Positions 1 through 64,000 are shown, counted from the first letter of the stretch. The stretch is 64,000 bases of DNA from Chthonomonadales bacterium (GCA_038231295.1 JBBRLP010000009.1:1-64000); one strand, 5' to 3'. Notes: generated from the sequence alone by a model not told the origin. Numbers and translations are program-made.

Positions 1-253
1 GACGACGCCCCCTTCTCCCCGGTTTAAGTAGGGGACAATCGGTCGGTGAGCAAGTCCTTTCGGAGGGAGGAGTCTGTCTCCTCCCCCTGAGCGCAAGCCT
101 GCTCGAAAACGGGCAAAATACTATTCGTCGGAGCATCTATTAGCGTTACCAAAGCAGTCCATTCTTCTCGTGCGAACTGCGGACATGAAGCATTTCGAGG
201 GAATATGGGGGATCGTTTCGGTCAGAGCAGCAGAGATGGAAGAGTCGTCCACA

Positions 254-32400: not shown

Positions 32401-35400
32401 CGCGATGGACTGGTTGTTCACCTGGTCGCTGTACATCTTCACTGTCGTCGCGAACGAGCCGTTTTCGACGCCGACCGTCGGGTCGGTGAAGGGCGAGAGA
32501 GCGCGTCCGGTGATCTGCGCCCGGTTCTGGCCGAGCAGTTTCGCCACGCGCACATCCACCAGGTTGACGTTGCTCTCATTGTAGACGGTGAAGGGCCGGA
32601 AGAACTCGCCCTGAAGCGTCGGGTCGTCCCAGATGAACGGCCCCGGCAGGCCCGGTGACATATCCGGTGCGAACGGCACCTGGAAGGAGCGCGGCTGGCT
32701 GTTATTGGTCAGCGGCGTGTAGCCCGTGCCGTGCGGCAGTTTGCCCACGTCCAGCGTCGTCTCCGCGACCCGCATCTTGACGCCCGGTGGCACCGAGACG
32801 CCGACTTCGAGAGCGCGGTACGCCTCGTTCACCCCGGCATTGCTGCCGTAGCGAGCCGCCTGGAAGAAGTTGGTCGGATTGTAGCCGCCTGCCGGTCGGG
32901 GCAGGTCGGGCGGAATGACCCGGATGACCACCGCCGAGACGTAGCCTGCGGCGGGATAGGAGAGCGCGTTGCCCAGCGGCGTCGGCTGCCCGTTCGAGGT
33001 CTGGAGCGGCCCCAGAACCGTCTTATCGTAGTTCTGCGTCACGGTCGGATCGGACGGGTTGCCGCGATTGACCCCCGACATATCCAGGAAGGAGGAGCCG
33101 AACGTCACGCCGTTGAAGGTACGGAGACCGTAGTTGATGTTGGCGGGCTGGAAGCGCGGCACATTGACCGCCATCGTAAACGGCGTCGCCACCAACTGAC
33201 GGGTTCCCGCGATGGCGTCGCTGCCGTTGAACTGGTAGTTCGGCAGTTTCAGTTGAACCGAGCCGCCAATCGCATCCTCATCGCCCTGCGTCTTGCGGAC
33301 GGTGAATGCGGAGGTCGGAATACTCGGGTAGTCCAGGGTATCCTGGGCATCCGTCGGCAGTTGTTCCCAGGGCAGTGGGTTCATGACGGCGGAGCCGGTC
33401 GCGGTCGGGTTCTGGGACGGCGACCAGCCGTGCCAGCCGAGTTTGCGCGTCAGCACCTGAATCTGGAGCGGCTTGCGGCGCAGTCCCCACATATTACTGC
33501 GGTCTACGATATAGAACGCATCCTGTCGGTTGCCTGCGTTGTCCACGCCCCCATACGTCGAGGTGGAACCGTCCGGCACCATCGGCAGCGGCGCGAAGAG
33601 CGACTTGACCGCAGAGTTCGTCGTCACCACGCCCGGAATGACCTGTCGGTTGCCGTTGCCAAGCAGTTCCCCGACGTTGGCGGGTTTGATGGTCAGCGCA
33701 TTCTGCACACTGCCATAGAGACCGACAACGTTCAGGTTGCCCTTGCCCGTCATGTCCGAGTTCAGCGGAATAGTGAGGTCCGGGTTCAGCGGCGAAATGC
33801 TGCGGGTCGTGACCGCGATCGGGTTCGTGATCGAGTAGGCACGTGCGATGCCGAGGATATTCGTCTGGGAGGGCGGCGTCTGGAACGCCGCAATCAGTCC
33901 GGTATAGTCGTGCTGGCCGATGGCATAGGTGGGCGTTCCCGCCGACTGATTGGGGAACGGGGTTGTCGTCATCGTCGCCGGGTCGTAACCCTCAAGGTCC
34001 TGATAGATCTCGGCATGGGCCGTAATACGGTAGCCGCGCACTCCCGGCAGGAAGTTGGCGATGGTGCCGTTGTCCGTCGGCGCTCCCGGATAGATCGGGA
34101 AGGCATGGGAGAAGACCCAGGGATAGACGTTCTTGTCGCGTCCCTGCAGAAGCTGCGCCGCCGGGTTGCCCATGTTCGGGTCTATGCCGAATATCTGGAG
34201 CGTATCGTGTTCGCCGTTGTTGATGGCGACGTCGTCGGGCCAGAGTTCGCCTGCGGCGGCGTGCAGCGCTTTTGTCTGCGGGAAGATGTCCGCCGCATAG
34301 CTGGTCGAAGCGCCGCCGGGCTGCGAGATGGTAAAGGTGACATGGATGCGCGGTGGGCCGGTGCCATGCAGGGGCTTGGTCTTGTCGTCCGTCGGCTGCG
34401 CGTGGTAGACGCCTGCCGCTGAGACATAGAGCATATCCCCCCAGTCGGAACCGTATTCGGTATTGCCGGCAATCAGGTTGCCGGGGTCGGGCAGAACGGA
34501 CTTGGTATACCCACCGCCTGCGTTCTTGCGGTTGGGCGTATTGGTTCCCGCAACGATCTTGTTGTAGCTGTCCTGGCGATAGATGTCGAAGACGCGCAGG
34601 TCAATACTGAGGTTGCCCGCGCCGAGTGCGATCTCCGCCGGTTCGCCGCCGTTGTTCGGTCCCAGCGTATTGCCCAGACCGTTCAGCCCGACTCCGACAC
34701 CGTAGGCGCGGAGCTGGCCGCCCTCGTCGCCTTCGACGATCATACCGGAAGCGAGAGACGCCGACGCGATCCGGTTCGCATTGACCTCATGGTGATGCCA
34801 TATCTCAGAAAGCAGGGTATCCGTGCCAAACGTGCCGGGCTGTGTCGTATCGGGCCGTGCGGTAAGGCCCCAGATTGCGCCATCGTCGTCGGCGAAGACA
34901 AGAGCGGGCTGCGGGTTGATGGTATCTACCGATTCGCCCGGCAGGCCGGTCAGCAGGGTCGCGATGGGGCTGGCGCTGGTGTTCGCGCCGCTGAGAGTGA
35001 TGCCGGAAGCGATGAGTTTACCATTGAAGGCGTTCAGGCCGATGAGTATGCTGTTGCCTTCGAGGACGTAGCAGAAGTCATTGGTGACCGCCGGACTGGA
35101 CGGAATGACGGGTGCAGCGTTCAGCGTCGCCTGACTCATCAGCACGGGAGCCGTGCCATTGAAGCCCGGATCTAGCGCGACAGTCGCGTCGTTCGCGGGG
35201 TCAGCATTCGGTGGGGTCGGCGTATTCGGGAAGACCCATTTCAGCGTATTGGTGGTCGGCGCGGTCGGACTGACGACTGCCGGAACCTCCTGCACCGCGT
35301 AGACGCGGCCTTCACAGGTGAAATAGAGGTAGGGGAAACCCGCACCGGCAGGCTGGAAGATCGCCGCCGTGCTGATCGCACCGCCAAGACCGGTATTGCC

Positions 35401-37764: not shown

Positions 37765-37847
37765 GGAATTTCCTCTTATCTTCATCTCATTAAGAGCGGC
37801 GGAATGCATTCCGCCGCTCCGAGCCTATAGCGGTCAATTTTTGTCTC

Positions 37848-40800
37848 TTAGAACGGACGGTCACTGAAGGTCGGCTGCTCCAGCAGGCTGGTGGCGGTGC
37901 CGTTGGTTCCAACGCCTATCTTCCGTTTGATCGGTCCGGAGGCGGGCAGAACCGGAATGGCCTCGTTAGGCACCATCCAGGTGATCGCGCCGGCTGTGTT
38001 CGCCGTCAGGTTCCCGCCAACAACGTTGTAGAGACGGGCATTGGCCTGTCGGTAGCCGCCGGTATAGAAGTAGTCGCTGCGGACTTCCACCACTTCCCCA
38101 TGCACATCGCCATCGGCCACGTTCGCTGGCCCGCCGAATATCTCGAAGATATTGTCGCGGCCCGTGTAGGCGTTGGTAATCAGGTAGCGCGGATAGAACT
38201 TGTTGGTCGTCGGGTCGTAATCGGCCTGTTCCAGTTTCTGGATGCTCGTCGCGTTCAGGTGGCGGCCTGTCATATAGTAGTAGTCGTCATTTGACAGCGA
38301 CCACTCGACAATGGCCTCTCCGTTTAGCATTCCCGTTCCCGGCTTCAGAACATAGACTCCGTTGGCATCGGCGAGTACGTAATGCAGATCAGGCACCACC
38401 AGATTTAACGGATTGACTACGTTGAACTCTTTGAACCAGCGGGGGTTGCTGATCGTCTGGCGCTGCGTGATCGTCGTTCCTGCCGCGTTGACGTAGACGA
38501 TGCTGTTGATCAGCGCGGCCACATCGCCATCCGCACCTGCACCGGCGGGGGGATACCGTTTCAGGATCATCAGCGAGCCGCCCGGCCCTTTGACATCGTT
38601 CGGGTTCGTGCCGACGTTGATGGCGGTCGGGTCGAGAACCCCGGCCTGCCGCACGTTGTCTACCGCCGCGACCATGTAAGTGCGGAAGACGCCCGATTCA
38701 AAGTTCGTGAACTGCTGTATGGTTCGATACCGGAAGGCCTGATTTTGTTCCCCATACGACCGGGTATTGAAGACAACCTGCTTGAGCATTCGCGGCGTGG
38801 TGCCGTCGCTGCCCGTCATCACCACCGGAGCGCCCGTCGCGTCGTAGATGTCTACGACCTCCAGAGAGCGGAAGTTGCCGCTGTCCGCGATGATGTAGTG
38901 GAAGGCGATCCAGAACCCGCTACCCGGAGGCGTATAGCTGTAGGTCGCGTTCGAGACCGGACTGGTAAAGGTCAGAGTACCCGTGCCGCTGGTGGTATAG
39001 GTCTGAATGTCGGTGGGCTGGTTCAGCGTCACCGGGTCGTTGTCACGCAGGAAGCGCAGATCGTTGCCCATTCGGCTCAGTTCCCACGTCACGATGCCGC
39101 CCTTGTCCACTTCGATGACCCGGTTATTGCCGGTATCGGCGACCAGGAAATCGTTCAGGGTGTAGCGGTGCGCCATATTCGGACGGGACAGCGACGTTTT
39201 GAGCGTTCCGAGCGCCCCCTGCCCGTTGACGGTACTCTGAATAGCCGTGTAGGACTGTGTGGCGTCCATCGTCCAGGCGGCGCGTCCCGCATGGTCCACT
39301 TCGATCAGGCGGTTGTTGTCCGCGATAAGCGTCAGTTGGTTGTCGAGCGCGATCAGGCCCTGCGGCGTTCCGACCGCCACAATCCCGGTCGTCGCGACAG
39401 GCGGACTGAAGATCGGCTGTGGGATAGCCTTCACGGAGACGGGTGGGCCGGGAGCGAGATACTGCACCGCGTCCGTCGCGATCAGCCGTAGCGTTCCATC
39501 GTCCTTGAAGACGCTGACCTGCCCTCCGTTCGAACTGATACCGGACATATCGAAGGAGACGATGCGCCCGGTCGTCGAGCCGTAGTAGAGCGTGCTGCCG
39601 ATGACGCTCGCGCCGCTCGCCGGATGGATGCCTTCCAGCTCCGGCTCCGTTACGGAGGTCGGGGCGATGCCGAATGCCTTACGGTCCAGCGGGATTGTTG
39701 CCCACCAGAGCAGGTTGTCCAGAACGCCGAAACCGGTCTGATGGTTGATAATCGGGTCGGTCTCATCCACGATCTTGGTGCCGTTTACGGTACTGACCAG
39801 GATCGGCAGAGCGGTATTGAACGCATCCCCTCCGGTGGCCGGTGCGCCGTTACCGGGCTGCACACGGAAATCGAAGATATGGATGGTGCTGCTGCTGCGG
39901 TCTACCGTGAAGTTCGTGTCTTCGTACAGGTCCACGTATTTCGGCTGGAGCGCAGTGGAATTGACCAGATCGGGCTGGCGAATCTTCAGCCGCTCGTTCG
40001 GAAGTGCGATGAGCGTCCCATCGCCCTTCTGTACGGTGAAGGTGGTATCCGGGTTGGAGCGCAACGCCATGAGGACAAGACCGTCCTTCGGGCCTGCAAT
40101 CACGCCGCCGTTCAGGTCTCGCAGATGGCAGTAGCCGACAGTGTAGACGACGCCGTTCGTATAGGCGGGATTGCCAATCTGCTCGTAGTCGGTTACGAAA
40201 ACCTTTGTCAGCACAGGCGGCGGGGCGGGATTGTTCTTCGAGACGAATGTGGAGATGTTAAACAGCCGTCCGGGAACGCCGCCCGTGCCGAGCGCGAAGT
40301 CGTCGTCGGGGGCGTTCGGGCTGAACATCCAGGCAAGGCCGGTGTTGGCTTTGACGGTGCCGTTGGAGAACGTCGTGTTCAGAATCGTGTTGCCGAACTG
40401 CTCATGATAGGCGTAGAGTCGGTCACCGCCCGGATAGTCGCCCGCTCCCAGGAACAGATAGTCCTGCGGGGAGAGCGTCGGAGTGCCGAAAATACGCATA
40501 TAAGGCGGATTGGCGACGCCCTGCCGGGGGTCGGGTGAGACGGTGAAGCTGCGAATACTGAACAGCCGCATTTCCGCCGCTGTCGGGCGCACCGTGCCGC
40601 CGCCGGAAGTCGGAACCAGGTCGGCGGGCCAGTCCAGCGTATAATCGGCGGTGAAGGTGTCCGTCGCGACGAAAGGCGCGGTGATGATGACGACCATGAC
40701 GCGATTGGCAGGCGGCCCCTGATACTCGACGGTGAAGTCGGTGCCATAGATAAGCCGTTTCAGCCCGCCGCCGGCAAAACGCTGATAGACGACCGGGCGC

Positions 40801-42926
40801 AGATCGGGCGCGGGGCCGGTCGGGGCCGTCTGGAACCAGGGCAGCCGCCGTCGGGTGCCTTTCGGCACAAACATATTGCTGCCCGCCGCGAAAGACTCCA
40901 GCGGTTCGCCCTTCGTGCTAAACCAGACGCCCTGCACGGTTCCCGCGAAGGTGTCGGTGTTGGCGTAGGTGCGGGTCGGGACATAGATCATCTTGTCCAG
41001 CGCCCCTGTCGCATCGTCGCGGACATAGCCGACTGTCAGCGAACCGACCGGATTGGCGATGCCGGGAACGACACCGCTGATAACCGCAGGCGACAGCGTA
41101 CTCGGTACGACCGTTCCCGCAATGGCGGAAGACTCGTGGAAGATGTCCTGGCCGGTGAACGGATCAAGCGCGGCGATATGCCAGGTATGATTCGGGTCAT
41201 TCGCCGCCTGATTCCAGAGCGTGAAGACGACACCATCCGAAAAAGCGGGCGCGGGGGCGGGCAGAATCTCCAGCGGCGTTCCCAGCGGCAGCAGGTCAGC
41301 GGAGAGATCGGTCGGGCTGGCATCCGGCGAAACCACGTTGTTAAAGAGCAGCGGGGAGGTCGTCTGAAGGACGCCGCCGACACGGGGGAACGCATCGTAG
41401 AAGAGCGTCGCGCCGGTGCTGGTCGTCACCGCAATGATGTCGAGCGGGGTGCCGTTGACCGGGTTGGCGACCGAGATAATGGTCGGCGTGGAGATGCGGG
41501 TACCGGCGTTCGTGCCGAGCGTCCCTTTCATGTCCACATTCCAGATTTCGTCGTAGGGTGCGCCGTAGATGTAGTCGCGAATGCCGTCGTCTGAGTTGCC
41601 GTCGTTGTCGAGGTCCTGCTGCGGGCTGGCATCGTAGGCGTGGAGGACGTTGTTGCCGTCCACGTAGAAGACAACGCCTTTATGAATGACCGCGCCGGAG
41701 CCGACCGAAGGATACGCCGACTGCGGCGGGTTCTGAAGCTGCGGCGGGATGGTAGACCAGCGCTTTGCCAACTGCGAACCGACGTTCTCCTGCGTTCCGC
41801 TCGTGCGCCGCGCATTCACGCCGCCGGTGGGAACGGAACTCGTCCAGGCGATCAGGTTATAGGCGAACTTGAGGTCTACCGGACGTGCGCCCAGTGTCCC
41901 CTCGCCGCTTGCGACCGCGCTGTTGCCGCCCTCGCCCACATCCACGCCGCCGACATAAGCGTTGATGCCCGTCGCGATACCGCCGGAACTCACCACGATA
42001 TGCCCGGCCCCGTAGTCGCCTGCGGAGAGGAAGGGAAGCTGATTGCCTGCCACCCCTGCCCAGACGACCGGAACCAGCACACGCGGGTTCGCCAGTCCTG
42101 TTGTACCCGTGAACGTGTTGTTCAGGCCCTGATGCGCGTGGTGCGTATGGCCTGCCGAGTCGTACTGAATTCCCGCCGCGCCGAGCGCCTGAATGTCTAC
42201 GCTGTTGATGGAGTAGGGGAAATTGATCAGCGGGTGATGCGCCGTCGCAGGCGTCGGGTAGGTTCCCGCCGAGAGGGCCGAACTGAAACCGAGGTCTACG
42301 ATGAACTGCCCGCCGCCGTAGCTGCCGCCGCTCTTGAGATCGAAGTCGCCTTCGTCCTCCAGCCAGACCGTGCCGCCGCCGTCCACATAGCGCCGCAGTT
42401 TCTCACGCTCATCGGCATTGAACTGCGTGGAGCCGTTGTGATAGGCCATCAGGACGACATCGAACTGCTGCAAATCGGTGGAGGAGACGTTGTCGAGGTT
42501 GACTTCCCAGTACGCGCCGAAGTTCTTGCTCAGAGGCGCCCCGACGCGGAACGCGACGGAGGCCGCGCCGCCCCCGAACGCCGGATCGGTGGCTCCCGCC
42601 CGGTTCTGCCAGCGGGCATAGATGTCGCCGGTGATTGTCGAGGGCGCGAGGGGGTTGGTGAACTCCCACCCGGCAGGTTTGAGGTCGGTGCGCCGATCCA
42701 TGACATAGAAGACGTGCGGCGTGACGTTCTCCGGCCCTCCCCCGACACCGGGGGCTGCGTTTGTCACCAGGACGCAGGCGCGAATCTGCCGCCGTTCGCT
42801 GGCGTAGCTGTGCGTGTCGGCCTGCGCGGGCGTCACCGCCTGCATGGTCGTCAGCCCCAGGCTCAATAGTAGCAGCCGGGGGAAAACGATCTTACCAATC
42901 TTATTGTGTGAGCGGCGTCTTATCAT
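37848..42926 (-). CDS. Giant secreted protein with NHL-like/PQQ-like beta-propeller repeats
   Basis: 1,692 aa with RBS AAAGGTAAG and a signal peptide (KIVFPRLLLLSLGLTTMQAVTPAQA). Repeated D-x-G-N-x-R-[VL]-IEVD motifs (ADTGNNRVIEVDKGG, IADNNRLIEVDHAG, ADSGNFRSLEVVD) resemble NHL repeats. PQQ-like motifs (GVVFYVDGNNVLHAYDA) are also present. Confidence 0.7.
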   Translation of the reverse strand: MIRRRSHNKIGKIVFPRLLLLSLGLTTMQAVTPAQADTHSYASERRQIRACVLVTNAAPGVGGGPENVTPHVFYVMDRRTDLKPAGWEFTNPLAPSTITGDIYARWQNRAGATDPAFGGGAASVAFRVGAPLSKNFGAYWEVNLDNVSSTDLQQFDVVLMAYHNGSTQFNADEREKLRRYVDGGGTVWLEDEGDFDLKSGGSYGGGQFIVDLGFSSALSAGTYPTPATAHHPLINFPYSINSVDIQALGAAGIQYDSAGHTHHAHQGLNNTFTGTTGLANPRVLVPVVWAGVAGNQLPFLSAGDYGAGHIVVSSGGIATGINAYVGGVDVGEGGNSAVASGEGTLGARPVDLKFAYNLIAWTSSVPTGGVNARRTSGTQENVGSQLAKRWSTIPPQLQNPPQSAYPSVGSGAVIHKGVVFYVDGNNVLHAYDASPQQDLDNDGNSDDGIRDYIYGAPYDEIWNVDMKGTLGTNAGTRISTPTIISVANPVNGTPLDIIAVTTSTGATLFYDAFPRVGGVLQTTSPLLFNNVVSPDASPTDLSADLLPLGTPLEILPAPAPAFSDGVVFTLWNQAANDPNHTWHIAALDPFTGQDIFHESSAIAGTVVPSTLSPAVISGVVPGIANPVGSLTVGYVRDDATGALDKMIYVPTRTYANTDTFAGTVQGVWFSTKGEPLESFAAGSNMFVPKGTRRRLPWFQTAPTGPAPDLRPVVYQRFAGGGLKRLIYGTDFTVEYQGPPANRVMVVIITAPFVATDTFTADYTLDWPADLVPTSGGGTVRPTAAEMRLFSIRSFTVSPDPRQGVANPPYMRIFGTPTLSPQDYLFLGAGDYPGGDRLYAYHEQFGNTILNTTFSNGTVKANTGLAWMFSPNAPDDDFALGTGGVPGRLFNISTFVSKNNPAPPPVLTKVFVTDYEQIGNPAYTNGVVYTVGYCHLRDLNGGVIAGPKDGLVLMALRSNPDTTFTVQKGDGTLIALPNERLKIRQPDLVNSTALQPKYVDLYEDTNFTVDRSSSTIHIFDFRVQPGNGAPATGGDAFNTALPILVSTVNGTKIVDETDPIINHQTGFGVLDNLLWWATIPLDRKAFGIAPTSVTEPELEGIHPASGASVIGSTLYYGSTTGRIVSFDMSGISSNGGQVSVFKDDGTLRLIATDAVQYLAPGPPVSVKAIPQPIFSPPVATTGIVAVGTPQGLIALDNQLTLIADNNRLIEVDHAGRAAWTMDATQSYTAIQSTVNGQGALGTLKTSLSRPNMAHRYTLNDFLVADTGNNRVIEVDKGGIVTWELSRMGNDLRFLRDNDPVTLNQPTDIQTYTTSGTGTLTFTSPVSNATYSYTPPGSGFWIAFHYIIADSGNFRSLEVVDIYDATGAPVVMTGSDGTTPRMLKQVVFNTRSYGEQNQAFRYRTIQQFTNFESGVFRTYMVAAVDNVRQAGVLDPTAINVGTNPNDVKGPGGSLMILKRYPPAGAGADGDVAALINSIVYVNAAGTTITQRQTISNPRWFKEFNVVNPLNLVVPDLHYVLADANGVYVLKPGTGMLNGEAIVEWSLSNDDYYYMTGRHLNATSIQKLEQADYDPTTNKFYPRYLITNAYTGRDNIFEIFGGPANVADGDVHGEVVEVRSDYFYTGGYRQANARLYNVVGGNLTANTAGAITWMVPNEAIPVLPASGPIKRKIGVGTNGTATSLLEQPTFSDRPF

Positions 42927-42986
42927 AAGTCACTTACCTTTGTAGTCCCGTCATTTGACGAACTCAGGCGCGATGCGTTACAGGGA

Positions 42987-45900
42987 TCAGGGAACCAGCG
43001 GATGGTCGCTGTCTCCGAAATAGAGCAGGCCCGGACAGACCGGCAGGCGCGGCATAGGCGGCAGTATCTGATGAATGCCTGCGGGCCACCACGCCGTCAC
43101 GGGCGTAAACTTCGAGCGCAGAGCGCGGTTATAGCGCGTCGCGGTGGTCGCGCCGAGCGTCAGCCCCTTGTCGCTCGGGTGCTGGTAGGGCATGGCGAAC
43201 GCCGGGTCGTACTGATAGCGCAGGCCGCGAGTGATGTTCTCGGTGTTCTCCAGCGCCGTGCGGAAATCCTGACTGCGATCTTCAGCGGGGCTGTAAATCG
43301 CAACCGCATTGGAGGCATCGTGAACCCCGATGTGGTCGTCCGGGATGCCTATCGCACTGGAGCCGAAGCGGGTGGTCACGTAGCCCCATTTCGACAGCCA
43401 CGCCGCCTGATCGCCCATCGAAGCCGTGTAGTTCTCCGCGATAGAGCCGAAGATCGTCAGGCGAATGTCGGTCGGTTCGTTGTAGAACGGATAGACATCT
43501 TTCGCGATCTTATCCTGACCGCTATCCAGGTTCTGGCCGCTGCTGCCGATGCTGTAGGCAGTGCGGGTCCCAGTCTTCGCGAAGTTGATGCGCGTATCGT
43601 TCGGGTCCTGGTTGACTGAGTAGCCCGGTATCACGAAGAAGGACTTCTCCTGTGCGTACATTGCGGCTTCGATGCGAATGTCGAGCGGAGCCACGAACGC
43701 CCCGGCATACAGGTAGTCGGTCGTGCCGCCCGCGCCGAGCAGTGTCGAGGCGTTCTGGTCTTTCTGGACGCGCAGAATGTTCTCGAAGCCCGGAGCGCGA
43801 TAGAGCGTGTTGAACAGCTTGCTCGTCGCATCGTAGTAGGGAGCCACGCCACCCGGATCGCGCAACAGGAAGCCGCGCATATCGGCGTAGGGCGTGATCT
43901 CACTGGCGACCGGAACCGGAACGACAGGCGTCCCCGCGAACCGTACACCGAGCGCATAGGTCTCCGGCGGCAGAAGGGCGCTCTGATTGAACTGGAACAG
44001 CGAACTGCCGTTGTTGTTCAGTACCGGGTTGATGAGCAGGTTCATGGCCGACGGGCCGGGCGAGAGCGCCCGATGCCGCGTCATCAGATAGATCGGGCTG
44101 GCTCCCGCGCCGCTCTTGTAGGTCGCCGGGTCCACGCCGAAGCTGAAGCTCTGGTCGTAGGTCTCCCGCGACGTTCCCAGATAGACATCGAACACGCCGT
44201 CGTTCGCCGGGTCGGGCGTCCAGACCCCGGTCTGGTTCTCCGGCGACATGAACATCGTCGTATTGACGCAGACGTAGTCTTTCGCCAGAATCGAGCAGGT
44301 CGAACCGCGCTCCAGAACAGGCGCTCCGCCGTTAAGGTAGCCGTCGGCCTTCAGCAGGTTGCCTTCGACATAGGCAGTGCCGCCTGTGACGACCGTGACA
44401 TGGACGCGGCCCAGATGCGGGATGGTCGTGTTGCCCGGATCGGTGATGCCGCCGTAGTTGCCCTTGATGCGGACGTTGCCTTCCGCCATGATGACCAAAT
44501 TGACGCCATAGGAGTTCTGGTCGTTGAATGGGTTGGCATAGGCGGGCGGCAGGTTCGCGGCGGTCTTCGGCTCGTCGCCCAGGTGGGGCAACGGGGGAAG
44601 CGCGTAGGCGGTGCCGTCCGGGAAGACATAGCTGGCGCGTTCGTCGTCGGCCAGCGGAATGTCCACGACTTTGCCGCCGTTCGCCGTGATCGGCGTTCCG
44701 TCCGGTTTGCGGAAGACATCGCTGTCGCTGCGGGTCAGAATGACGTGGGTTCCCCGGAACTCGACCTGAATCCCCGGTGGGCGATAGTTCGGCCCCTGCC
44801 AGAAGGAGTTCGGATAGGCTTTCGGATCGAGCCAGTCGGTACGCAGCGAGTAGGAGCCGTTGATGCCCTGCGACTCATGCTGCAAGTCCTGCGGGTTGTT
44901 GATATAGACGCCGCGTCCCCATCCGAAGAAACCGGTGTTGAGGTTGCCGCTCCAGATGCCGGAGTCGCGGGTCAGCGCACGGTAGCGCAGGACGCCCGTT
45001 CCGTCCACCTTCGTGTCCATAATCATCGGGTCGAGGCGCGGGATGTTGCGGTTGAAACCGATGTTGTCCGGCGTCGCGGAGCCGTCCCGAATCAGGCCGA
45101 GCAGGGTGCTGAAGTTCGGGCTGGCGCTGGGCCGCAGGGCGCTGGCGAGATTGGGCGCTCCGAGCGGCGTGTTGACATAGACTTGCAGGTCGTTGTCGTT
45201 CAGGATGCTGTCCGCCCCGTTGTTGGCCGGGTCGTTGTCCAGGTCGCGGGTCGGAGCCAGGGAGAACGAGCTGGACGAGAGAACCGTCTCCGCCGGGGCC
45301 GGGAACGACAGGCGCGGGCTGAGATAGATATAGGTATCGCCGCCGAAGCGCACGGGGCCATTGGCGCGGATATTCGCGCCGTACAGCACCTCGTTGTTGT
45401 TGATGCCGTCCGTCAGGTGGGAGGCAATCGTCGGGTCACCCAGCACGGTGGGAATGTCGCGCATTCCATCTACCGGGGCCTGCCCGGCGACAGAAGCCTC
45501 CAGATGCGGCGTCCCGATAAAGTTCTCGTAGGCGGTTCGGTCTTTGTTGGTGATGAAGAACAGATAGTCCGTCAGGCCAAGCTGGACATAGGCAACCTGT
45601 TCGCGCCGAAGCTGCGGAGGCAGGCTGGCGCTCTGCACGAAGATGGTCGGGTCTACATCGCCCTGCGAGATGTCGCCGGGCCGTCCGACGGCCTCTATCC
45701 GCAGATACTGGCTGCGCGGATCGTCGGCTCGCGGCTCATAGACCACGCGCACCAGCGCACGACCGCCATTGAAGAAGACGCGGGAGAAGCCCTGCGACAG
45801 CCAGCGGAAGTCCGGGTCGGTGACGCCCATCGGGTCGCTCGCACTGGTAAAGGGCGGCGTCGGCTCCGGTCGCCAGTCGGCTCCCTCTTCGCTGTAGGTC

Positions 45901-46136
45901 AACTGGTTGGAGCAGAAGTTGATTCCGGCCTCGGAAAAAGACTGAGCATTCAGCGTGTCCTTGCTGCGGGCGGCGTTGGTCAGGTTGCGTGCGATCTGCA
46001 CGACAAACAGCCCGCCGATAAACAGCAGCACGAACAGGATCGCCAGCGCGATAATCAGGGTCTGGCCGCGTCGTGCGCGGCTGCGCCGTGAACTGCGAGA
46101 AGTGGGTCTTGCACTATATAGAGGTAGAGTTGCCAT
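42987..46136 (-). CDS. Giant GspK/PilX-like minor (pseudo)pilin-type protein
   Basis: 1,049 aa with RBS GGGAG. The N-terminus RRGQTLIIALAILFVLLFIGGLFVVQIARN is a basic residue, then Gly, then a hydrophobic helix lacking Glu5. This resembles GspK/PilX-type pseudopilin N-termini rather than a classical signal peptide. The remainder is Asn/Gly/Thr/Pro-rich. It is far larger than known GspK/PilX proteins. Confidence 0.5.
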   Translation of the reverse strand: MATLPLYSARPTSRSSRRSRARRGQTLIIALAILFVLLFIGGLFVVQIARNLTNAARSKDTLNAQSFSEAGINFCSNQLTYSEEGADWRPEPTPPFTSASDPMGVTDPDFRWLSQGFSRVFFNGGRALVRVVYEPRADDPRSQYLRIEAVGRPGDISQGDVDPTIFVQSASLPPQLRREQVAYVQLGLTDYLFFITNKDRTAYENFIGTPHLEASVAGQAPVDGMRDIPTVLGDPTIASHLTDGINNNEVLYGANIRANGPVRFGGDTYIYLSPRLSFPAPAETVLSSSSFSLAPTRDLDNDPANNGADSILNDNDLQVYVNTPLGAPNLASALRPSASPNFSTLLGLIRDGSATPDNIGFNRNIPRLDPMIMDTKVDGTGVLRYRALTRDSGIWSGNLNTGFFGWGRGVYINNPQDLQHESQGINGSYSLRTDWLDPKAYPNSFWQGPNYRPPGIQVEFRGTHVILTRSDSDVFRKPDGTPITANGGKVVDIPLADDERASYVFPDGTAYALPPLPHLGDEPKTAANLPPAYANPFNDQNSYGVNLVIMAEGNVRIKGNYGGITDPGNTTIPHLGRVHVTVVTGGTAYVEGNLLKADGYLNGGAPVLERGSTCSILAKDYVCVNTTMFMSPENQTGVWTPDPANDGVFDVYLGTSRETYDQSFSFGVDPATYKSGAGASPIYLMTRHRALSPGPSAMNLLINPVLNNNGSSLFQFNQSALLPPETYALGVRFAGTPVVPVPVASEITPYADMRGFLLRDPGGVAPYYDATSKLFNTLYRAPGFENILRVQKDQNASTLLGAGGTTDYLYAGAFVAPLDIRIEAAMYAQEKSFFVIPGYSVNQDPNDTRINFAKTGTRTAYSIGSSGQNLDSGQDKIAKDVYPFYNEPTDIRLTIFGSIAENYTASMGDQAAWLSKWGYVTTRFGSSAIGIPDDHIGVHDASNAVAIYSPAEDRSQDFRTALENTENITRGLRYQYDPAFAMPYQHPSDKGLTLGATTATRYNRALRSKFTPVTAWWPAGIHQILPPMPRLPVCPGLLYFGDSDHPLVP

Positions 46137-54961: not shown

Positions 54962-56227
54962 TCAACGGTAGCCGGCCTGGCCGGGTTGCGGGGTGGTGGC
55001 GGTCTTGATCATCTTCTCAAGTTCCGTCGGGTTCATAGCGCGGGTCATGGCCTCGTCGAGCGAAATCACACCGCGCACGTACATGTCGCGCAGACACTGA
55101 TCCATCGTCTGCATACCCATATTGGCGCTGGTTTGAATCATGGACGTGATCTGATGGGCTTTGGCTTCACGGATCAGGTTGCGGATAGCCGGGGAGGCCC
55201 GCATGATCTCGAGGGCGCAGGCACGTCCGGGTTGATTGGCGCGGGGAATCAACTGCTGGCATAGAATGGCCTGCAAGTTGTTGGAAAGCTGGAGGCGCAC
55301 CTGCTCCTGCTGCCCTCCAGGGAACGAGTCCACGATACGTTCGACGGAGGTCGCGGCGGAGTTGGTATGCAGCGTGGCGAACACAAGGTGGCCCGTTTCG
55401 GCAGCGGAGACGGCCATCTGCATGGTTTCGAGGTCGCGCATTTCGCCAACGAGGATGACATCCGGGTCTTCGCGGAGGGAGGCGCGGAGGGCGTTTTTGA
55501 ACTCTTTGGTGTCCTGCCCGACTTCGCGCTGATTGATAACCGAGAATTTATGCGTGTGCAGGTATTCAATCGGGTCTTCAATCGTGATGATATGCTTGCT
55601 CTCCTCGCTATTGATGTGATTGATCATCGCGGCGAGCGTGGTGGATTTGCCGGAACCTGTCGGGCCGGTGACGAGGACGAGGCCGCGCGGTAGGTGGGTC
55701 AGCTCTTCCAAAATGGGCGGCAACTGCAGGTCCTTGAGTGTGGGGATCTTCTGCGGAATCTGCCGAAAGGCCATCGCGCAGTTGCCCTTATCGCGGAAAA
55801 CGTTGACGCGGAAACGGGCAATACGGGCCAACTGGTACGAAAAGTCCAGTTCGAAATCGGTTTCAAAGCGCTGAATCTGTTCGTCGGTGAGGATGTCGTA
55901 GATCAGTCTCTGCGCGGCCTGCGGGGTCATCTTCTCCCAGGGCATCGGCACGAGTGCACCATCCACGCGGATGACGGGCGGAATTCCGACGGCAATATGG
56001 AGGTCGGACGCGCCTTTTTCGTTCATGGCCCGGAGCAGGTCGTCAATATGCGCGTCGTCGAGGACGAAGGGACGCGCCGAGGTCGCCTGGATGGGTGCGG
56101 GCGGCATTCCGGGAACGCCCGGCACTCCGGGAGGAGCCTGGGGCTGTGCGTAGTTCGGCTGGCCCTGCGGCGGAGCATAGCCCTGTCCGGGCTGGTTCGG
56201 ATTGTTGGGGAACTGATTGTTCGACAC
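54962..56227 (-). CDS. pilT: Type IV pilus retraction ATPase PilT-like, with Pro/Gln-rich N-terminal extension
   Basis: The PilT/PilU-type core has LVLVTGPTGSGKSTT (Walker A) and DPIEY. It also has DVILVGEMRDLETM (Walker B/Asp box) and ATLHTNSAA (His box). The longest ORF runs to 56371. The start was chosen at the GTG at 56225-56227, which follows a strong RBS GGGAGAAAAAGACC. This gives a ~60-aa low-complexity leader (VSNNQFPNNPNQPGQGYAPPQGQPNYAQPQAPPGVPGVPGMPP). The start remains ambiguous. Confidence 0.8.
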   Translation of the reverse strand: MSNNQFPNNPNQPGQGYAPPQGQPNYAQPQAPPGVPGVPGMPPAPIQATSARPFVLDDAHIDDLLRAMNEKGASDLHIAVGIPPVIRVDGALVPMPWEKMTPQAAQRLIYDILTDEQIQRFETDFELDFSYQLARIARFRVNVFRDKGNCAMAFRQIPQKIPTLKDLQLPPILEELTHLPRGLVLVTGPTGSGKSTTLAAMINHINSEESKHIITIEDPIEYLHTHKFSVINQREVGQDTKEFKNALRASLREDPDVILVGEMRDLETMQMAVSAAETGHLVFATLHTNSAATSVERIVDSFPGGQQEQVRLQLSNNLQAILCQQLIPRANQPGRACALEIMRASPAIRNLIREAKAHQITSMIQTSANMGMQTMDQCLRDMYVRGVISLDEAMTRAMNPTELEKMIKTATTPQPGQAGYR

Positions 56228-56438
56228 GGTCTTTTTCTCCCGATAAACGCCGTCCGTCCTGCCACATCCTTTGCAGAATGGGATAGCCCACGGCATAGCA
56301 GCTCTGATTAGTACGTAGTAGGCAAGTGTACAATTTAGTCCGGTGGACGCAGGATGGCAAAGGGTTGACACTCCTCGCTACGCGCCTCCGGCGGATCGTC
56401 CTTCGGACGAAGGGAATGCCCGTCGGGAATGACATCGG

Positions 56439-56540
56439 AATGAATTGCGGGTTTGCCCATCCGTTTGCCCTTCGGAATGAATTCCGAAGGGCAAACACCG
56501 GACGCAACGGCAAAATGATGGGCAAACCCGCAATTCATTC
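56439..56540. repeat. Nested double-palindrome (cruciform/RNA double-hairpin element) between pilB and pilT
   Basis: Outer 24-bp perfect inverted repeat: gaatgaattgcgggtttgcccatc at 56439-56462 and gatgggcaaacccgcaattcattc at 56517-56540. It encloses an inner 34-nt near-perfect palindrome at 56463-56496 (gtttgcccttcggaatgaattccgaagggcaaac). All arms are built from two motifs (ggaatgaatt, gtttgccc) in alternating orientation. This is why ORFs 56326..56616(+) and 56335..56634(-) translate to the same peptides. Confidence 0.7.
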
Positions 56541-56757
56541 GCTGTGTTGGATGTGGCTGCCGCAGGCCGTGCCGTTTCGTCCTGACCGGAGGTTCCCGTT
56601 TCGATGGGAGCCATAACGGAAACGCCTTCCGCACCGCCGACCATTGCGGTCTACGGCGCGGAAGAACGAAGCCATTCGAAGGTACGATTGAACCACGTTA
56701 GCCACTACATCGCGCTTCCAATCCCTGGTCTGCGATTCCACACAGGCGAAGTGCGGT

Positions 56758-58533
56758 TTAGTAACCGGCGGTGAAGACGACGCGCATGACCTCTTCGGGC
56801 GTGGTCTGCTGCGCGAGAACTTTCAGCAGTCCGTCTTCCTTGAGTTCCTTCATGCCGTTGGCTTTGGCGGCCTCTTTCAGGTCACCGAGCGGGGCGCGGC
56901 GCACCACCATTTCGGCCATCTCCGCGTTCATTCGCATTAGTTCGTAGAAACCGATACGGCCCTTGTAGCCCGTATGGCGGCACATCTCGCAGCCACGTCC
57001 ACGCGCAAGGGTCACCAGCTCACCCGGGTCTTCCGGCTTGAAGCCGAAGCGGCGCAGATCGGAACCCGGAACCTCATAGGTCTCCTTGCAGTTCGTACAG
57101 ATTTTGCGTCCGAGGCGCTGGGCGAGAATACCGATGATCGTCGCCGAGATAAGGAACGGCTCGATCCCCATGTCAATAAGGCGGATCGTGGCCGAAGGCG
57201 CGTCGTTGGTATGGAGCGTCGAAAGCACAAGGTGGCCTGTCAGCGAGGATTCAATGGCGATTTCCGCCGTTTCCAGGTCGCGCATCTCTCCGACCATAAT
57301 GATGTCCGGGTCCTGACGGAGGAAGGAGCGCAGGGCGCCGGCGAAATTGAGACCGGCCTTCTTGTTCACCTGCACCTGCGTGATACCGGTCAACTGGTAC
57401 TCACAGGGGTCTTCGACTGTCAGGATGTTGACGCCGACGGTGTTGAGGCGGTTAAGCACCGAGTACTGCGTGGTCGTCTTGCCGGAACCCGTTGGACCGG
57501 TAGAGAGAAGCATTCCGTTCGGCTGGTTGGAAAGTTCTTCCAGTTGGGCCTGCATCTCGGGGGTAAAGCCGAGTTTGTTCAGCCCGATCATGATGCTGCT
57601 CTTGTCGAGAATTCGCATGACGATCTTTTCACCGAACAGGTTGGGCAGACAGGAGACGCGGAGGTCGTAGTCCTTGTTCTCGTAGCGGATGGGGATACGA
57701 CCGTCCTGCGGAACGCGCCGTTCGGCGATGTTCATTTCCGAGAGAATCTTATAGCGGGCCGTCAGCGGCATCTGAAGGTATTTCGGCATCGGCATGGCTT
57801 CATGCAGAACGCCGTCAATGCGATACCGGACGCGCATGTTGCGGGTTCCCGGCTCGATATGGATGTCCGAGGCACGCTCTTTGATCGCCTGCTGAATAAT
57901 CGTGTTGGCGAGGCGAACGATAGGCGCGTCGTCGGAGCCGTCCACACTGGCCTTTTCGTCGTCCGCGTCAATGTCCGCGCTCTTGTCCGCGCCGTAGCGG
58001 GCGATGGCTTCCTTCATGTCGGTCGCCATGCTGCCGCTGCCGAGTTCCATCCCGTCTTTGTTCGGGTTCATTCCGGTCTTGGCGCTGATCTCTCCCCCAG
58101 TGGAGCCGCCGTAGAGACGGGCAATCGCATCGGTAATGTGATCGGGAACGGCTAGAACTGCGCGTACCGTACAGCGCGAGACCAGGCGCAGGTCGTCGGC
58201 AGCCGTAATGTCGTTGGAGTTTGCCATCGCCACATAGAGGATATTGCCGTCTTTTTTGACCGGCAGCACATTGTGGCGTTTCGCGACGTGTTCGGGAACG
58301 ACATTCAGCGCACTCTGATCGGGCTTGTAGACGGTGAGGTCCACGAAGGGCTGACCGAGTTCCGCCGCCTTCGCTTCATAGACGTGCGTGGGATTGAGGC
58401 CGAGGTCTACCAGGATTTTCGCGAGGTCGCCATGCGTAGACTGCTGGGCCTTCTTCGCATCCTCTATCTCCTGTGTAGAGGCGTACCCCTTCTCCACCAT
58501 ATAGTCGCCCAGGCTTTTTCGTGCCATTACCAT
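56758..58533 (-). CDS. pilB: Type IV pilus assembly ATPase PilB (GspE family)
   Basis: 591 aa. The N-terminal GspE_N/MshEN-like domain precedes the ATPase core (LLSTGPTGSGKTTT, DPCEY, IIMVGEMRDLETA, STLHTNDAPS). A C-terminal tetracysteine zinc motif is present (CTNCKETY...CEMCRHTGYKGR). Confidence 0.9.
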   Translation of the reverse strand: MVMARKSLGDYMVEKGYASTQEIEDAKKAQQSTHGDLAKILVDLGLNPTHVYEAKAAELGQPFVDLTVYKPDQSALNVVPEHVAKRHNVLPVKKDGNILYVAMANSNDITAADDLRLVSRCTVRAVLAVPDHITDAIARLYGGSTGGEISAKTGMNPNKDGMELGSGSMATDMKEAIARYGADKSADIDADDEKASVDGSDDAPIVRLANTIIQQAIKERASDIHIEPGTRNMRVRYRIDGVLHEAMPMPKYLQMPLTARYKILSEMNIAERRVPQDGRIPIRYENKDYDLRVSCLPNLFGEKIVMRILDKSSIMIGLNKLGFTPEMQAQLEELSNQPNGMLLSTGPTGSGKTTTQYSVLNRLNTVGVNILTVEDPCEYQLTGITQVQVNKKAGLNFAGALRSFLRQDPDIIMVGEMRDLETAEIAIESSLTGHLVLSTLHTNDAPSATIRLIDMGIEPFLISATIIGILAQRLGRKICTNCKETYEVPGSDLRRFGFKPEDPGELVTLARGRGCEMCRHTGYKGRIGFYELMRMNAEMAEMVVRRAPLGDLKEAAKANGMKELKEDGLLKVLAQQTTPEEVMRVVFTAGY

Positions 58534-61588: not shown

Positions 61589-61607
61589 TTCCGGACAACT
61601 CTGGTTT

Positions 61608-61883
61608 GGACCTCATCCCCCAACCCCCTTCTCCCGGGCGGTCGCAAGCTCCCTGGGAGAAGGGGGCTTTCAATCTCCCCACATCTTCATTACCCAAAAC
61701 GCTCGAAGGGTGGCCTGGGTTGGCCCTCATCCCCACTCCTTTCCCAAAAAGCCTGAGGGAGGACAATTTGCCTGTCTCTCTCGTGGGAGCGAACACGGTA
61801 GGAAATTAGTCAGCCTGACCGCCCCCTTCTCCCAGGGAGCCTAAGCGACCGCCCGGGAGAACGGGGGTTGGGGGATGAGGTCC
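61608..61883. mobile_element. MITE-like element: 276 bp flanked by ~60-bp near-perfect terminal inverted repeats
   Basis: IR-L at 61608-61667 reads ggacctcatcccccaacccccttctcccgggcggtcgcaagctccctgggagaagggggc. IR-R at 61821-61883 is its reverse complement with about 4 mismatches or indels. Each IR is itself an internal hairpin (ccccttctccc ... gggagaagggg). There is no ORF inside. It is inserted between the mltG start and the glycoside hydrolase gene. The 12-mer cccccttctccc also occurs at window positions 10-21. Confidence 0.4.
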
Positions 61884-62039
61884 GACCCCAACCCATCCTC
61901 CGAACGCTCAGAGAAGAACGAGAAAATGACGGAGGGGAGGAGGGCCAGCAGGCAGGGGGGAAGGGCCTGCGTCACGAACTATGGAGGTAAGAATCGCTAC
62001 GAAAATCTCTGGCGGAATAAACAGCAGGGAGTCAACGAG

Positions 62040-63521
62040 ATGAGGAAGAGACACTGGGGTCGCCTTGCGGCGCAATTCGTGCTGGCGGGCATTGGGGTTG
62101 CGGGAACGGCGGCGCGAGCCGAGGCGCCCGCGCCTCCCTATCCGTTCGCAATGTGTTCCAATGGCAACATCGGAACGAACCCGGAGTATGCGGCGAAGAT
62201 GCTGGATGCCGGGGCCAGAATGTGCCGGGCGGATGTGACGTTTGGTGATGTGCGCCCGAAGGAGGGGAACGACCCGAACGGCTGGAATTGGCAGCGCATC
62301 AACGCGCTGGTCGGGGTGCGGAAGGCGCATCCCACTCTGGATTTTCTGGTGCTGCTCGGCTACGGCGCGAAGTGGGCAGAGGATGCCCGCTATGCCGATG
62401 TCAAGAGCGGTGATTCGGCGGGCGGGCAACGCGGTATCGAGATCATGCCCGCCTGGAGTCCGGAAAACCTCTACGGACACTATGTCTACGAGACGGTTCG
62501 CCGCTACAAAGGCAGTTTTCACGCCTGGGAGAGCTGGAACGAGCCGGACTTGCCCGGTCACTCCTTTTTCAAGGGCGGCGGCAGGGAGTTCTTCTCCTAC
62601 CAGAAAGCCTGTTATCTGGCGGCGAAAAAGGCCGACCCGAACTGTACGGTCGTCTTTGCGGGTCTCTGCTTCGCGAATGTCGAGGGCTACCTGACCACGC
62701 ACAAACTCAGCCCGCCGACGCCCTATCCACCGCAGGAGTGCTTTTTCGAGGACTATCTGAAAGCCTGTGTTCAGGACCCCGATGCCCGTAAGAACCATTT
62801 CTATTTCGATGTCATGAACCAGCATACCTACAGCCGCGCCACCGACCTGTACGACTACACGATGGTGGACCGCAAACTGATGCGCGACTATCTGGGGGTG
62901 GAGAAGCCGATCTGGATCACGGAGATGGGTTTCGTGGACGCGAAGGGGCTGTTCGGAGGGGATGCGGACGACTACTGCGACTACCTGCTCCAGTCGTTCG
63001 CGTGGGGCAAACTGGCGAACGTGCAGCGATTCTTTCACTTCCAACTCGACAACTCCAACGGGCATGGCCTCTACTCCGGAATGCTTGGCCCCCCGAAACA
63101 GCCTCTGGCAACTTACCGCGATGTGCTGACAAAAGAGTTCGCCAATGCCCGCTTGCTTTCTCAGCAGCGTGGGAACGCAGGCGTCGGCTTCCTGCAGGGC
63201 CACTCTCCCTTCAAGCCCGACTGGAAGGCTGGCTACGACCTGTTTGCCTTCCAGAGCGGGTCGCGCCGCCTCTGGATGGCTTTCGCCGATACGGAGAAGG
63301 CCGTCGCCATCACGATTCCGGCCCGCCGCGCTCAGGCTATTCTGGTAGATCGGCACAACGTCCGCACACCTCTCGTCGCGCAGAACGGCGTCTATGCCCT
63401 CACCCTGCCCGGAGCCACCAACCGCACAGGCTGGCCGACCGCAGACGACCCGAAAGCAAAAGCGCTTGGCGAACCGGAGCATCTGGTCGGCGGCGCGACC
63501 TATGTGCTAATCGAGGAGTGA
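62040..63521 (+). CDS. Secreted clan GH-A (TIM-barrel) glycoside hydrolase-like protein
   Basis: The ORF is open from 61875. The start was chosen at the ATG at 62040 (MRKRHWGRLAAQFVLAGIGVAGTAARA, a signal peptide). The upstream part overlaps the MITE-like inverted repeat. A WESWNEPD motif (NEP catalytic acid/base of clan GH-A) is present. Confidence 0.55.
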   Translation: MRKRHWGRLAAQFVLAGIGVAGTAARAEAPAPPYPFAMCSNGNIGTNPEYAAKMLDAGARMCRADVTFGDVRPKEGNDPNGWNWQRINALVGVRKAHPTLDFLVLLGYGAKWAEDARYADVKSGDSAGGQRGIEIMPAWSPENLYGHYVYETVRRYKGSFHAWESWNEPDLPGHSFFKGGGREFFSYQKACYLAAKKADPNCTVVFAGLCFANVEGYLTTHKLSPPTPYPPQECFFEDYLKACVQDPDARKNHFYFDVMNQHTYSRATDLYDYTMVDRKLMRDYLGVEKPIWITEMGFVDAKGLFGGDADDYCDYLLQSFAWGKLANVQRFFHFQLDNSNGHGLYSGMLGPPKQPLATYRDVLTKEFANARLLSQQRGNAGVGFLQGHSPFKPDWKAGYDLFAFQSGSRRLWMAFADTEKAVAITIPARRAQAILVDRHNVRTPLVAQNGVYALTLPGATNRTGWPTADDPKAKALGEPEHLVGGATYVLIEE

Positions 63522-63530
63522 GGAGACGGA

Positions 63531-64000
63531 CGTGAACAGTGACAAATTGAGGATTGGGATTGCGGGCAAGCGGGGGCTGTCTTGCCTGTCGGGACTGCGG
63601 GCGGTGGCAGGCGTCGAGGTGACGGCGTTCTGCGAACTAAACCCGCAGGTGCTTCAGGAAGAGGCGACACGGCACGGCATTCCCCGACAGTTCACGCATT
63701 TTGAGGCGATGCTGGAGGTGGTGGATGCCGTGATTGTGGCGACTCCGATGCCGCTGCACGTCCCGCAGAGTGTGCTGGCCTTGCAGGCCGGGAAGCACGT
63801 TCTCTCGGAGGTGACGGCGGCGGTCTCGCTGGAGGAGTGCTGGCAGTTGCGGGAGGCGGTGCTGCGTTCCGGCAAGACCTATATGCTGGCGGAGAACTAC
63901 TGCTACTTTGAACCGAACGTGCTGATACGTGAGATGACGCGGCAGGGGCTGTTCGGGGAACCCTACTTCGGCGAGGGCGAGTATATTCACGAAGTCCGCG
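63531..64000 (+). CDS. Gfo/Idh/MocA-family NAD(P)-dependent oxidoreductase (5' partial, truncated by window end)
   Basis: Not in the supplied ORF track because the frame is open to the window end. A GTG at 63531 is preceded by GAGGAGA. The translation reads VNSDKLRIGIAGKRGLSCLSGLRAVAGVEVTAFCELNPQVLQEEATRHGIP...FEAMLEVVDAVIVATPMPLHVPQSVLALQAGKHVLSEV. This is the classic Rossmann N-terminal domain of this family. The listed minus ORF 63637..63990 is its antisense shadow. Confidence 0.7.

Follow-up and report, generated by a model that had tools for sequence, protein, structure and literature searches.

Intercistronic REP/BIME stem-loops, such as the one in malE-malF of E. coli, stabilise the mRNA upstream of them, and perfect hairpins can also be the product of quasipalindrome-templated mutation, that is, of template switching. 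Inverted repeats stand at the bounds of phase-variable fimbrial switches, and the Correia repeat-enclosed elements (CREE) are flanked by TA target duplications. The REPIN is a REP doublet that forms a hairpin (Bertels & Rainey, 2011; PMC3116915), and the CREE of Neisseria give an RNA hairpin that is bound or cut by RNase III (PMC2649163). CREE and bacterial MITEs measure ~100–155 bp, carry ~26-bp inverted repeats and occupy spacers 5′ of genes (PMC2649163, PMC2229807, PMC10969869). Here we analyzed a similar element in a stretch of 64,000 nucleotides from a Chthonomonadales bacterium (GCA_038231295.1, JBBRLP010000009.1:1–64000), which we call the window. By the taxon names of its PilB homologues, the source belongs to an uncultured Chthonomonadaceae lineage of the Armatimonadota. 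The element is of a known kind, an intergenic palindromic hairpin, either locally made or REPIN/MITE-like, and it lies between the genes for the pilus extension and retraction ATPases.

In the window pilB, the gene for a PilT/PilU-family ATPase, pilC and pilD are all on the minus strand. pilB (58533 to 56758) encodes a protein of 591 aa with T2SSE and MshEN domains, whose best NCBIfam match is TIGR02538. pilT (56227 to 54962) encodes a PilT/PilU-family protein of 421 aa, which scores 502.7 bits against TIGR01420 (cut-off 319.1). Its start was placed by homology to the orthologues at the GTG at 56227, with a ribosome-binding site (GGGAGA) ahead of it; the 469-aa ORF is over-extended. With this start the pilB-pilT spacer is 530 bp long. 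The preliminary description, which had put the palindrome in a spacer of ~390 bp, was thus right that it lies between a pilB-type and a PilT-family gene, as the TIGR hits support, and wrong about the length. The palindrome begins 217 nt past the pilB stop codon and ends 210 nt ahead of the pilT start codon. As a separate observation, an N-terminal extension of ~60 residues (56040–56227, minus strand), rich in Pro, Gln, Gly and Asn, precedes the ATPase core of PilT; it is common to L001, L002 and L091, three of the related loci introduced below, and is unusual among PilT-family proteins.

The whole element covers 103 bp (56438–56540), and no longer inverted repeat was detected in the 64-kb window. 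The left outer arm, GAATGAATTGCGGGTTTGCCCATC (56438–56461), pairs with the right outer arm (56517–56540) at 24 of 24 positions across a gap of 55 nt, and neither arm is assigned to a strand. At 91% complementarity the arms lengthen to 35 nt, reaching 56472 on the left and going back to 56506 on the right, with 33 nt between them. Nested inside is a palindrome of 34 nt made of GTTTGCCCTTCGGAAT (56463–56478) and ATTCCGAAGGGCAAAC (56481–56496), paired 16/16 around two central bases, and the rest of the interior (56497–56516, likewise without strand) is asymmetric. The perfect 24-bp inverted repeat around a 34-nt palindrome had been recognized before, and its earlier start, 56439, is one base off. 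The element had also been described as an assembly of two alternating motifs, and the motif counts bear this out: GTTTGCCC has four copies in the element (two per strand) versus eight across all 64 kb, both copies of GGAATGAATT are within the element, and GAATGAATT, preceded by G in its fuller form, occurs three times. Identical phantom peptides are indeed encoded on both strands (MNCGFAH and MGKPAIHS), which is true but trivial.

The repetition extends beyond the two palindromes. The 12-mer TCGGAATGAATT is a direct repeat, at 56435 and 56472, and one 8-mer is present four times in the palindrome region, where 8-mer repeats are about five-fold enriched (5 direct and 7 inverted, versus shuffle means of 1.2 and 1.3). 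Two further GGAATG units, at 56413 and 56426 (56413–56436, plus strand), lie outside the inverted repeat and are in phase (11–13 nt) with those at 56437 and 56474 (Poisson P ~1.5e-4, post hoc). On the other side, positions 56500–56512 of the interior are a 12/13 inverted copy of 56570–56582 in the right flank (post hoc P ~0.008, estimated by shuffling the flanks 1000 times). Tandem Repeats Finder reported nothing on the palindrome region, the ~12-nt phasing being too degenerate for that tool.

RNA folding of both strands, which the preliminary description had proposed as a check, gave a very high predicted stability on each. For the 119-nt RNA the folding energy is -76 kcal/mol when read from the minus strand and -77 kcal/mol from the plus strand (z = -13.3 and -12.8), and none of 200 shuffles of this region was as stable as the real RNA. 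The predicted shape on either strand is a Y, composed of the 24-bp stem, a stem of 15–16 bp and a small third hairpin; RNA of the inner palindrome alone forms a hairpin of 15–16 bp with a 4-nt loop (-26.7 kcal/mol). The corresponding values for single-stranded DNA are -51 and -49 kcal/mol. Among the 120-nt stretches scanned along the minus strand, the one with the element is the most stable, at -75.4 kcal/mol versus a background mean of -37 and a minimum of -68. Shuffles of the window contained zero matches to the outer or the inner arm. The palindrome is far beyond chance.

We compared the locus in eight distinct relatives with PilB 87–91% identical to that of the window (L001, L002/L003, L004–L007/L093, L008, L090, L091/L092); the protein collection searched contained no relative with PilB more than 91% identical. 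The palindrome and its motifs are absent from this spacer in L001–L008 and L090–L093, including the sister L001 (91% PilB identity), and the element is hence not one that occurs at the orthologous site of related pil operons. The proposal that it is a pilus-specific regulatory structure finds no support, as it is missing from every relative examined and sits in orphan DNA on a scar.

This scar is best described from the relatives. L001, L008 and L091/L092 have an extra PilB paralogue of 456–490 aa, "pilB2", between pilB and pilT (L001 11869–13332; L008 8294–9664; L091 4819–6291). The L001 product is ~53% identical to PilB and has ISDIRD in place of the GEMRD box (Asp for the usual Glu), the Walker A lysine is missing from that of L008, and pilB2 is on these residues catalytically suspect. 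The window retains a decayed 5′ stump of it (56710–56561, minus strand; residues 1–50, 48% identity) with in-frame stops at codons 2 and 20, and other genomes without pilB2 likewise keep just a 5′ stump. Two sister pairs in the PilB tree differ in pilB2: the window lacks it and L001 has it, and L004 lacks it whereas L091, with 96% PilB identity to L004, has it. The distribution on this tree implies three or more independent losses of pilB2 within a single Chthonomonadaceae clade.

All eight relatives have a near-invariant promoter-like block directly upstream of pilT, TTGACA-17-AATACT (sigma-70-like, 10/12), together with a conserved 5′ leader. This block, CTTGACAAAG..GTCAAAKTGAAGAATACT (L001 13534–13562, L004 7952–7980; compared with window 56315–56360), is missing from the window. 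Homology to the relatives ends at ~56596–56600 at the DNA level and, weakly, at ~56561 at the protein level, and resumes only at ~56314. The orphan segment that holds the palindrome (56315–56599, minus strand; ~245–285 bp, with an uncertain upper boundary) has no detectable similarity to the relatives, and neither the 93 loci retrieved (~0.9 Mb) nor the remainder of the window contain a match to it. It stands where relatives have pilB2, a long hairpin and the conserved pilT promoter. The homology gap, the pilB2 stump and the lost promoter together place the palindrome on a deletion/replacement scar. Sequence comparison thus indicates that it is young and confined to one lineage, at the site where pilB2 and the ancestral pilT promoter were lost.

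The only promoter-like site in the region, TTGCCA-17-TAAATT (56360–56332, minus strand; 9/12 matches, one found versus 0.2 expected), is also in orphan DNA, 77 nt past the palindrome on the way to pilT, and is a candidate for a replacement pilT promoter. In the relatives a CCCTTCCC...GGGAAGGG hairpin comes after the pilB stop codon; the window has lost it. Another hairpin of 16–17 bp, inside the pilB2 stump and within the first ~30 pilB2 codons (56626–56664, minus strand, -32 kcal/mol; L001 counterpart 11916–11952), is kept in all relatives, and where pilB2 is otherwise gone it directly precedes the pilT promoter region. It may act in termination or attenuation, or be mere residual coding constraint. 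At the pilB2 deletion junction of L004 (7920–7943) we also observed a terminator-like hairpin, GCGGAAGGC-GTTTGT-GCCTTCCGC followed by TCTCTTTCTT, just before the promoter. Its 3′ arm resembles an inverted copy of the adjoining stump, so a palindrome may have arisen at that independent scar too.

Our leading explanation, held tentatively, is that the element was made locally, as a by-product of rearrangement, and is not a conserved pilus regulator. The lineage would have deleted pilB2 together with the ancestral pilT promoter, giving rise to filler DNA, and short motifs inside this filler would then have been duplicated in inverted and direct orientation until a nested palindrome resulted. Template switching during replication or repair could be the route of this duplication. 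The phased GGAATG units, the inverted flank copy, the repeat enrichment and the lack of a target-site duplication fit template switching and not a discrete insertion. Such a mechanism would account for the perfect nested arms, for the reuse of motifs in both orientations and for inverted copies of the flank at a rearrangement junction, and we infer it here. An origin of the outer arm from the ancestral promoter spacer, suggested by eye from GTCAAATTGAAG and GAATGAATTGCGG, was not significant and was dropped.

We rank this local genesis somewhat ahead of an origin from a dispersed family, the REP/BIME-like alternative named in the preliminary description, which is possible yet the less probable of the two. 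In that case the element would be a copy of a non-autonomous palindromic family, REPIN-like (RAYT-mobilised) or MITE-like, that landed in the pilB2 scar or helped to create it, and any regulation would be incidental. Its architecture is that of a REPIN: two inverted units (~25 nt in REPINs, 24–35 nt here) and a spacer (33–55 nt here) form a single extragenic hairpin of ~100 nt, within the ~70–110 nt of that class. The lack of a target-site duplication and arms that are better conserved than the spacer belong to the same likeness. A non-coding element of 103 bp with terminal inverted repeats of 24 bp also falls within the MITE range (50–500 bp), and perfect arms are typical of recent transposition. 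Further support comes from other hairpin elements. The window has a second nested inverted-repeat element (61603–61888), also at a synteny break, whose motif CCCCCTTCTCCC recurs at window 8–19; L001 has two copies of an unrelated ~195-nt hairpin element, and the more distant L029 has two related elements of ~140–150 nt in 10.9 kb.

Several results nevertheless weigh against a dispersed family. We found no second copy or half-copy in the ~25 intergenic regions of the 64-kb window, either with up to 3–4 mismatches or by short-word BLASTN. The degenerate arm pattern GAATGAATTNNNGGTTTGCCCNTC had no match in GTDB representative genomes or in IMG/VR and a single match in the JGI metagenomes, upstream of an etfB-like gene and without the palindrome, where ~1 is expected by chance. 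BLASTN of 56300–56600 against plasmids and phages returned nothing, and so did a search of the concatenated six-frame translation of the element against 5.8 billion proteins, which is a low-power test. REPINs differ from the element in this respect, no further copies having been detected here in the window or in public collections, and CREE exceed 100 copies per genome, whereas a single copy without duplication is seen in these 64 kb. The flanks (...CATCG / GCTGT...) share a single G, and there is no target-site duplication beyond that G, which separates the element from a typical MITE. In a REPIN each unit is an imperfect palindrome; here the outer arm pairs with itself over at most 3 bp (GGG/CCC) and is not a REP-like palindrome. 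The sharing of motifs with both flanks is unexpected for a discrete insertion, and is again unlike a REPIN. Finally, no transposase, Y1-transposase or recombinase domain was found among the window genes, and no RAYT gene is known for this genome.

In Rfam 15 no family reached the gathering score; the only hits, far under the threshold, were to precursor models of plant miRNAs and were of the generic long-hairpin kind. Two other candidates were also rejected: a DNA-uptake sequence, as the palindrome motifs are not enriched in the window, and an attC-like site, as its core sites would have to match GTTRRRY / RYYYAAC and do not.

The other hairpin elements deserve description in their own right. 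The one at 61603–61888 is unrelated to the palindrome, spans ~286 bp and folds at -192 kcal/mol (z -9.9). Its arms of ~70 nt are ~90% complementary, and each is itself a hairpin (CCCCCTTCTCCCGGG...CCTGGGAGAAGGGGG). The motif CCCCCTTCTCCC, its core, has 5 hits in the window versus 0.46 expected, a recurrence suggestive of a REP-like family in this genome, one copy of which would be truncated by the window edge. The element marks a break in synteny, upstream of yceG; at this place most relatives carry a Response_reg + GerE gene. That gene stands next to yceG in L001 (6379–7026), L003, L004–L007, L090 and L093 and is absent from window 61600–63600, which contains long overlapping antiparallel ORFs; the plus-strand ORF, the one that was scanned, has no Pfam match.

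In L001 (13333–13528) and L091 (6293–6480) an imperfect hairpin of ~195 nt lies between pilB2 and the pilT promoter, with -106 and -103 kcal/mol, respectively. Its second copy in L001 (16343–16534) follows pilC, in the pilC-pilD spacer, and includes the final 19 nt of pilB2 coding DNA; the arms of this hairpin are conserved better than the middle. Homology of the orphan segment to this long hairpin was rejected, since the Smith-Waterman scores were within those of shuffles. In three Armatimonadota that are more distant, pilB is immediately followed by unrelated long inverted repeats. L029 (6410–6548) has 56-nt arms that are 96% complementary, and a related element (10247–10395) is found 3.8 kb away; L027 (2524–2653) has 40-nt arms that are themselves palindromic, and L025 (6366–6505) has a tandem 70-nt hairpin unit. 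Judging from the 61603–61888, L001 and L029 elements, long-hairpin repeats are common in these genomes, and the presence of unrelated families of them in the window and its relatives makes a mobile origin more likely a priori.

Whichever of the two origins applies, the palindrome would probably act only as a passive RNA hairpin barrier after pilB. All its effects at the RNA level are ones that we infer. A transcript running past the pilB stop codon would fold, 217 nt on, into the Y-shaped hairpin of about -76 kcal/mol, which would stall 3′-to-5′ exonucleases and hinder read-through. A perfect duplex of 24 bp is long enough for RNase III, and the stem would serve as its substrate. pilB messages would then end, or be cut, before the promoter-like site at 56360–56332. 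The hairpin lacks the U-tract that directly follows the GC-rich stem of an intrinsic (Rho-independent) terminator: on the minus strand its tail is CGAUGUCAUUCC, the plus-strand tail is GCUGUGUUGG, and no terminator-like sites were found in 56100–56900.

The hairpin had been thought to lie inside a polycistronic message. This is not supported: the relatives (8/8) have a dedicated pilT promoter and the window has a substitute site past the palindrome, so that the hairpin most likely lies between two transcription units. Like a REP/BIME stem-loop, a stable hairpin between co-directional genes can shield the upstream message from 3′-to-5′ decay and set differential expression. REP/BIME elements, in contrast, form large genome-wide families and act in proven polycistronic mRNA, whereas co-transcription of pilB and pilT in the window is doubtful, given the dedicated pilT promoter of the relatives. 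The closest functional analogy to a hairpin with a substitute promoter-like site is offered by CREE, which can bring or create promoters.

A selected, locus-specific structure that decouples pilB from pilT, as the preliminary description proposed, is unlikely. It would terminate part of the transcripts, be processed by RNase III or stabilise the mRNA, having been recruited after the loss of the ancestral terminator hairpin and promoter. In its favor, strong hairpins of differing sequence recur in this spacer across lineages: the ~195-nt hairpin of L001 and L091 is retained across their divergence, a terminator-like hairpin marks the L004 deletion junction, and L029, L027 and L025 have long inverted repeats or tandem hairpins right after pilB. 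The window is also without the hairpin that its relatives have after pilB, and the 24-bp duplex suits RNase III. Against this, the structure is conserved in no relative, and L002, L008 and L090 lack a comparable hairpin just upstream of the pilT promoter, their best-folding 120-nt stretches being elsewhere. The missing U-tract and the lack of an Rfam family at gathering score count against it as well. The same repeat families, moreover, occur in other spacers (pilC-pilD of L001, the end of the L029 locus), so the recurrence of hairpins may just mirror repeat-rich intergenic DNA. A broader version, which we regard as less likely still, is that selection in Armatimonadota type IV pilus operons has repeatedly favored a very strong hairpin "insulator" separating the extension and retraction ATPase genes, provided by unrelated sequences, and that the window element arose de novo or was recruited to restore the separation of pilB and pilT.

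A role at the DNA level is very improbable. The palindrome would then be either an array of regulator-binding sites ahead of the pilT promoter or a small phase-variation switch that inverts between the 24-bp repeats. The palindrome does span 77–180 nt upstream of the candidate -35 hexamer, with G(G/C)WWTG hexamers spaced by about one helical turn (56413, 56426, 56437, 56450, 56462, 56474) and GTTTGCCC half-sites arranged as inverted pairs, and fimbrial phase switches are likewise bounded by inverted repeats. Yet the motifs are not enriched elsewhere in the window or in the relatives' loci, and the Response_reg + GerE gene that neighbors the operon in most relatives is absent from the window. 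An invertible promoter switch is further contradicted by the 55 bp between the repeats, far below the size of known invertible switches, by an interior without promoter hexamers and by the lack of a recombinase gene in the window. Equally improbable is an assembly artefact, for example a chimera formed where strains differ by a deletion: the contig comes from a MAG and the element adjoins a presence/absence polymorphism (pilB2), but it is internal to a 75.6-kb contig with synteny intact on either side, its repeats are far shorter than assembler k-mers, and the orphan DNA flanking it is not palindromic.

If local genesis is the true origin, the element has little consequence for pilus biology and is an example of how deletion scars in compact operons gain perfect palindromes that passively reshape transcript ends. 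It is worthwhile as a regulatory case only if hairpins at the pilB-pilT junction prove to be selected. Its context is maybe more useful than the palindrome itself, with at least three independent losses of pilB2, a promoter lost with pilB2 in the window, and unrelated hairpin families in the pil spacers of Armatimonadota.

Elsewhere in the window, giant minus-strand ORFs lie downstream of pilin-like genes (29494–46136, 6917–11017 and 12602–21388). Those of 2771, 1692, 1049 and 1366 aa have no Pfam match, and another, with 2928 aa, contains many bacterial Ig-like domains (Big_13, Big_3_3). N-terminal methylation motifs are present in two ORFs (745 and 661 aa) and suggest pilus-associated proteins of unusual size.
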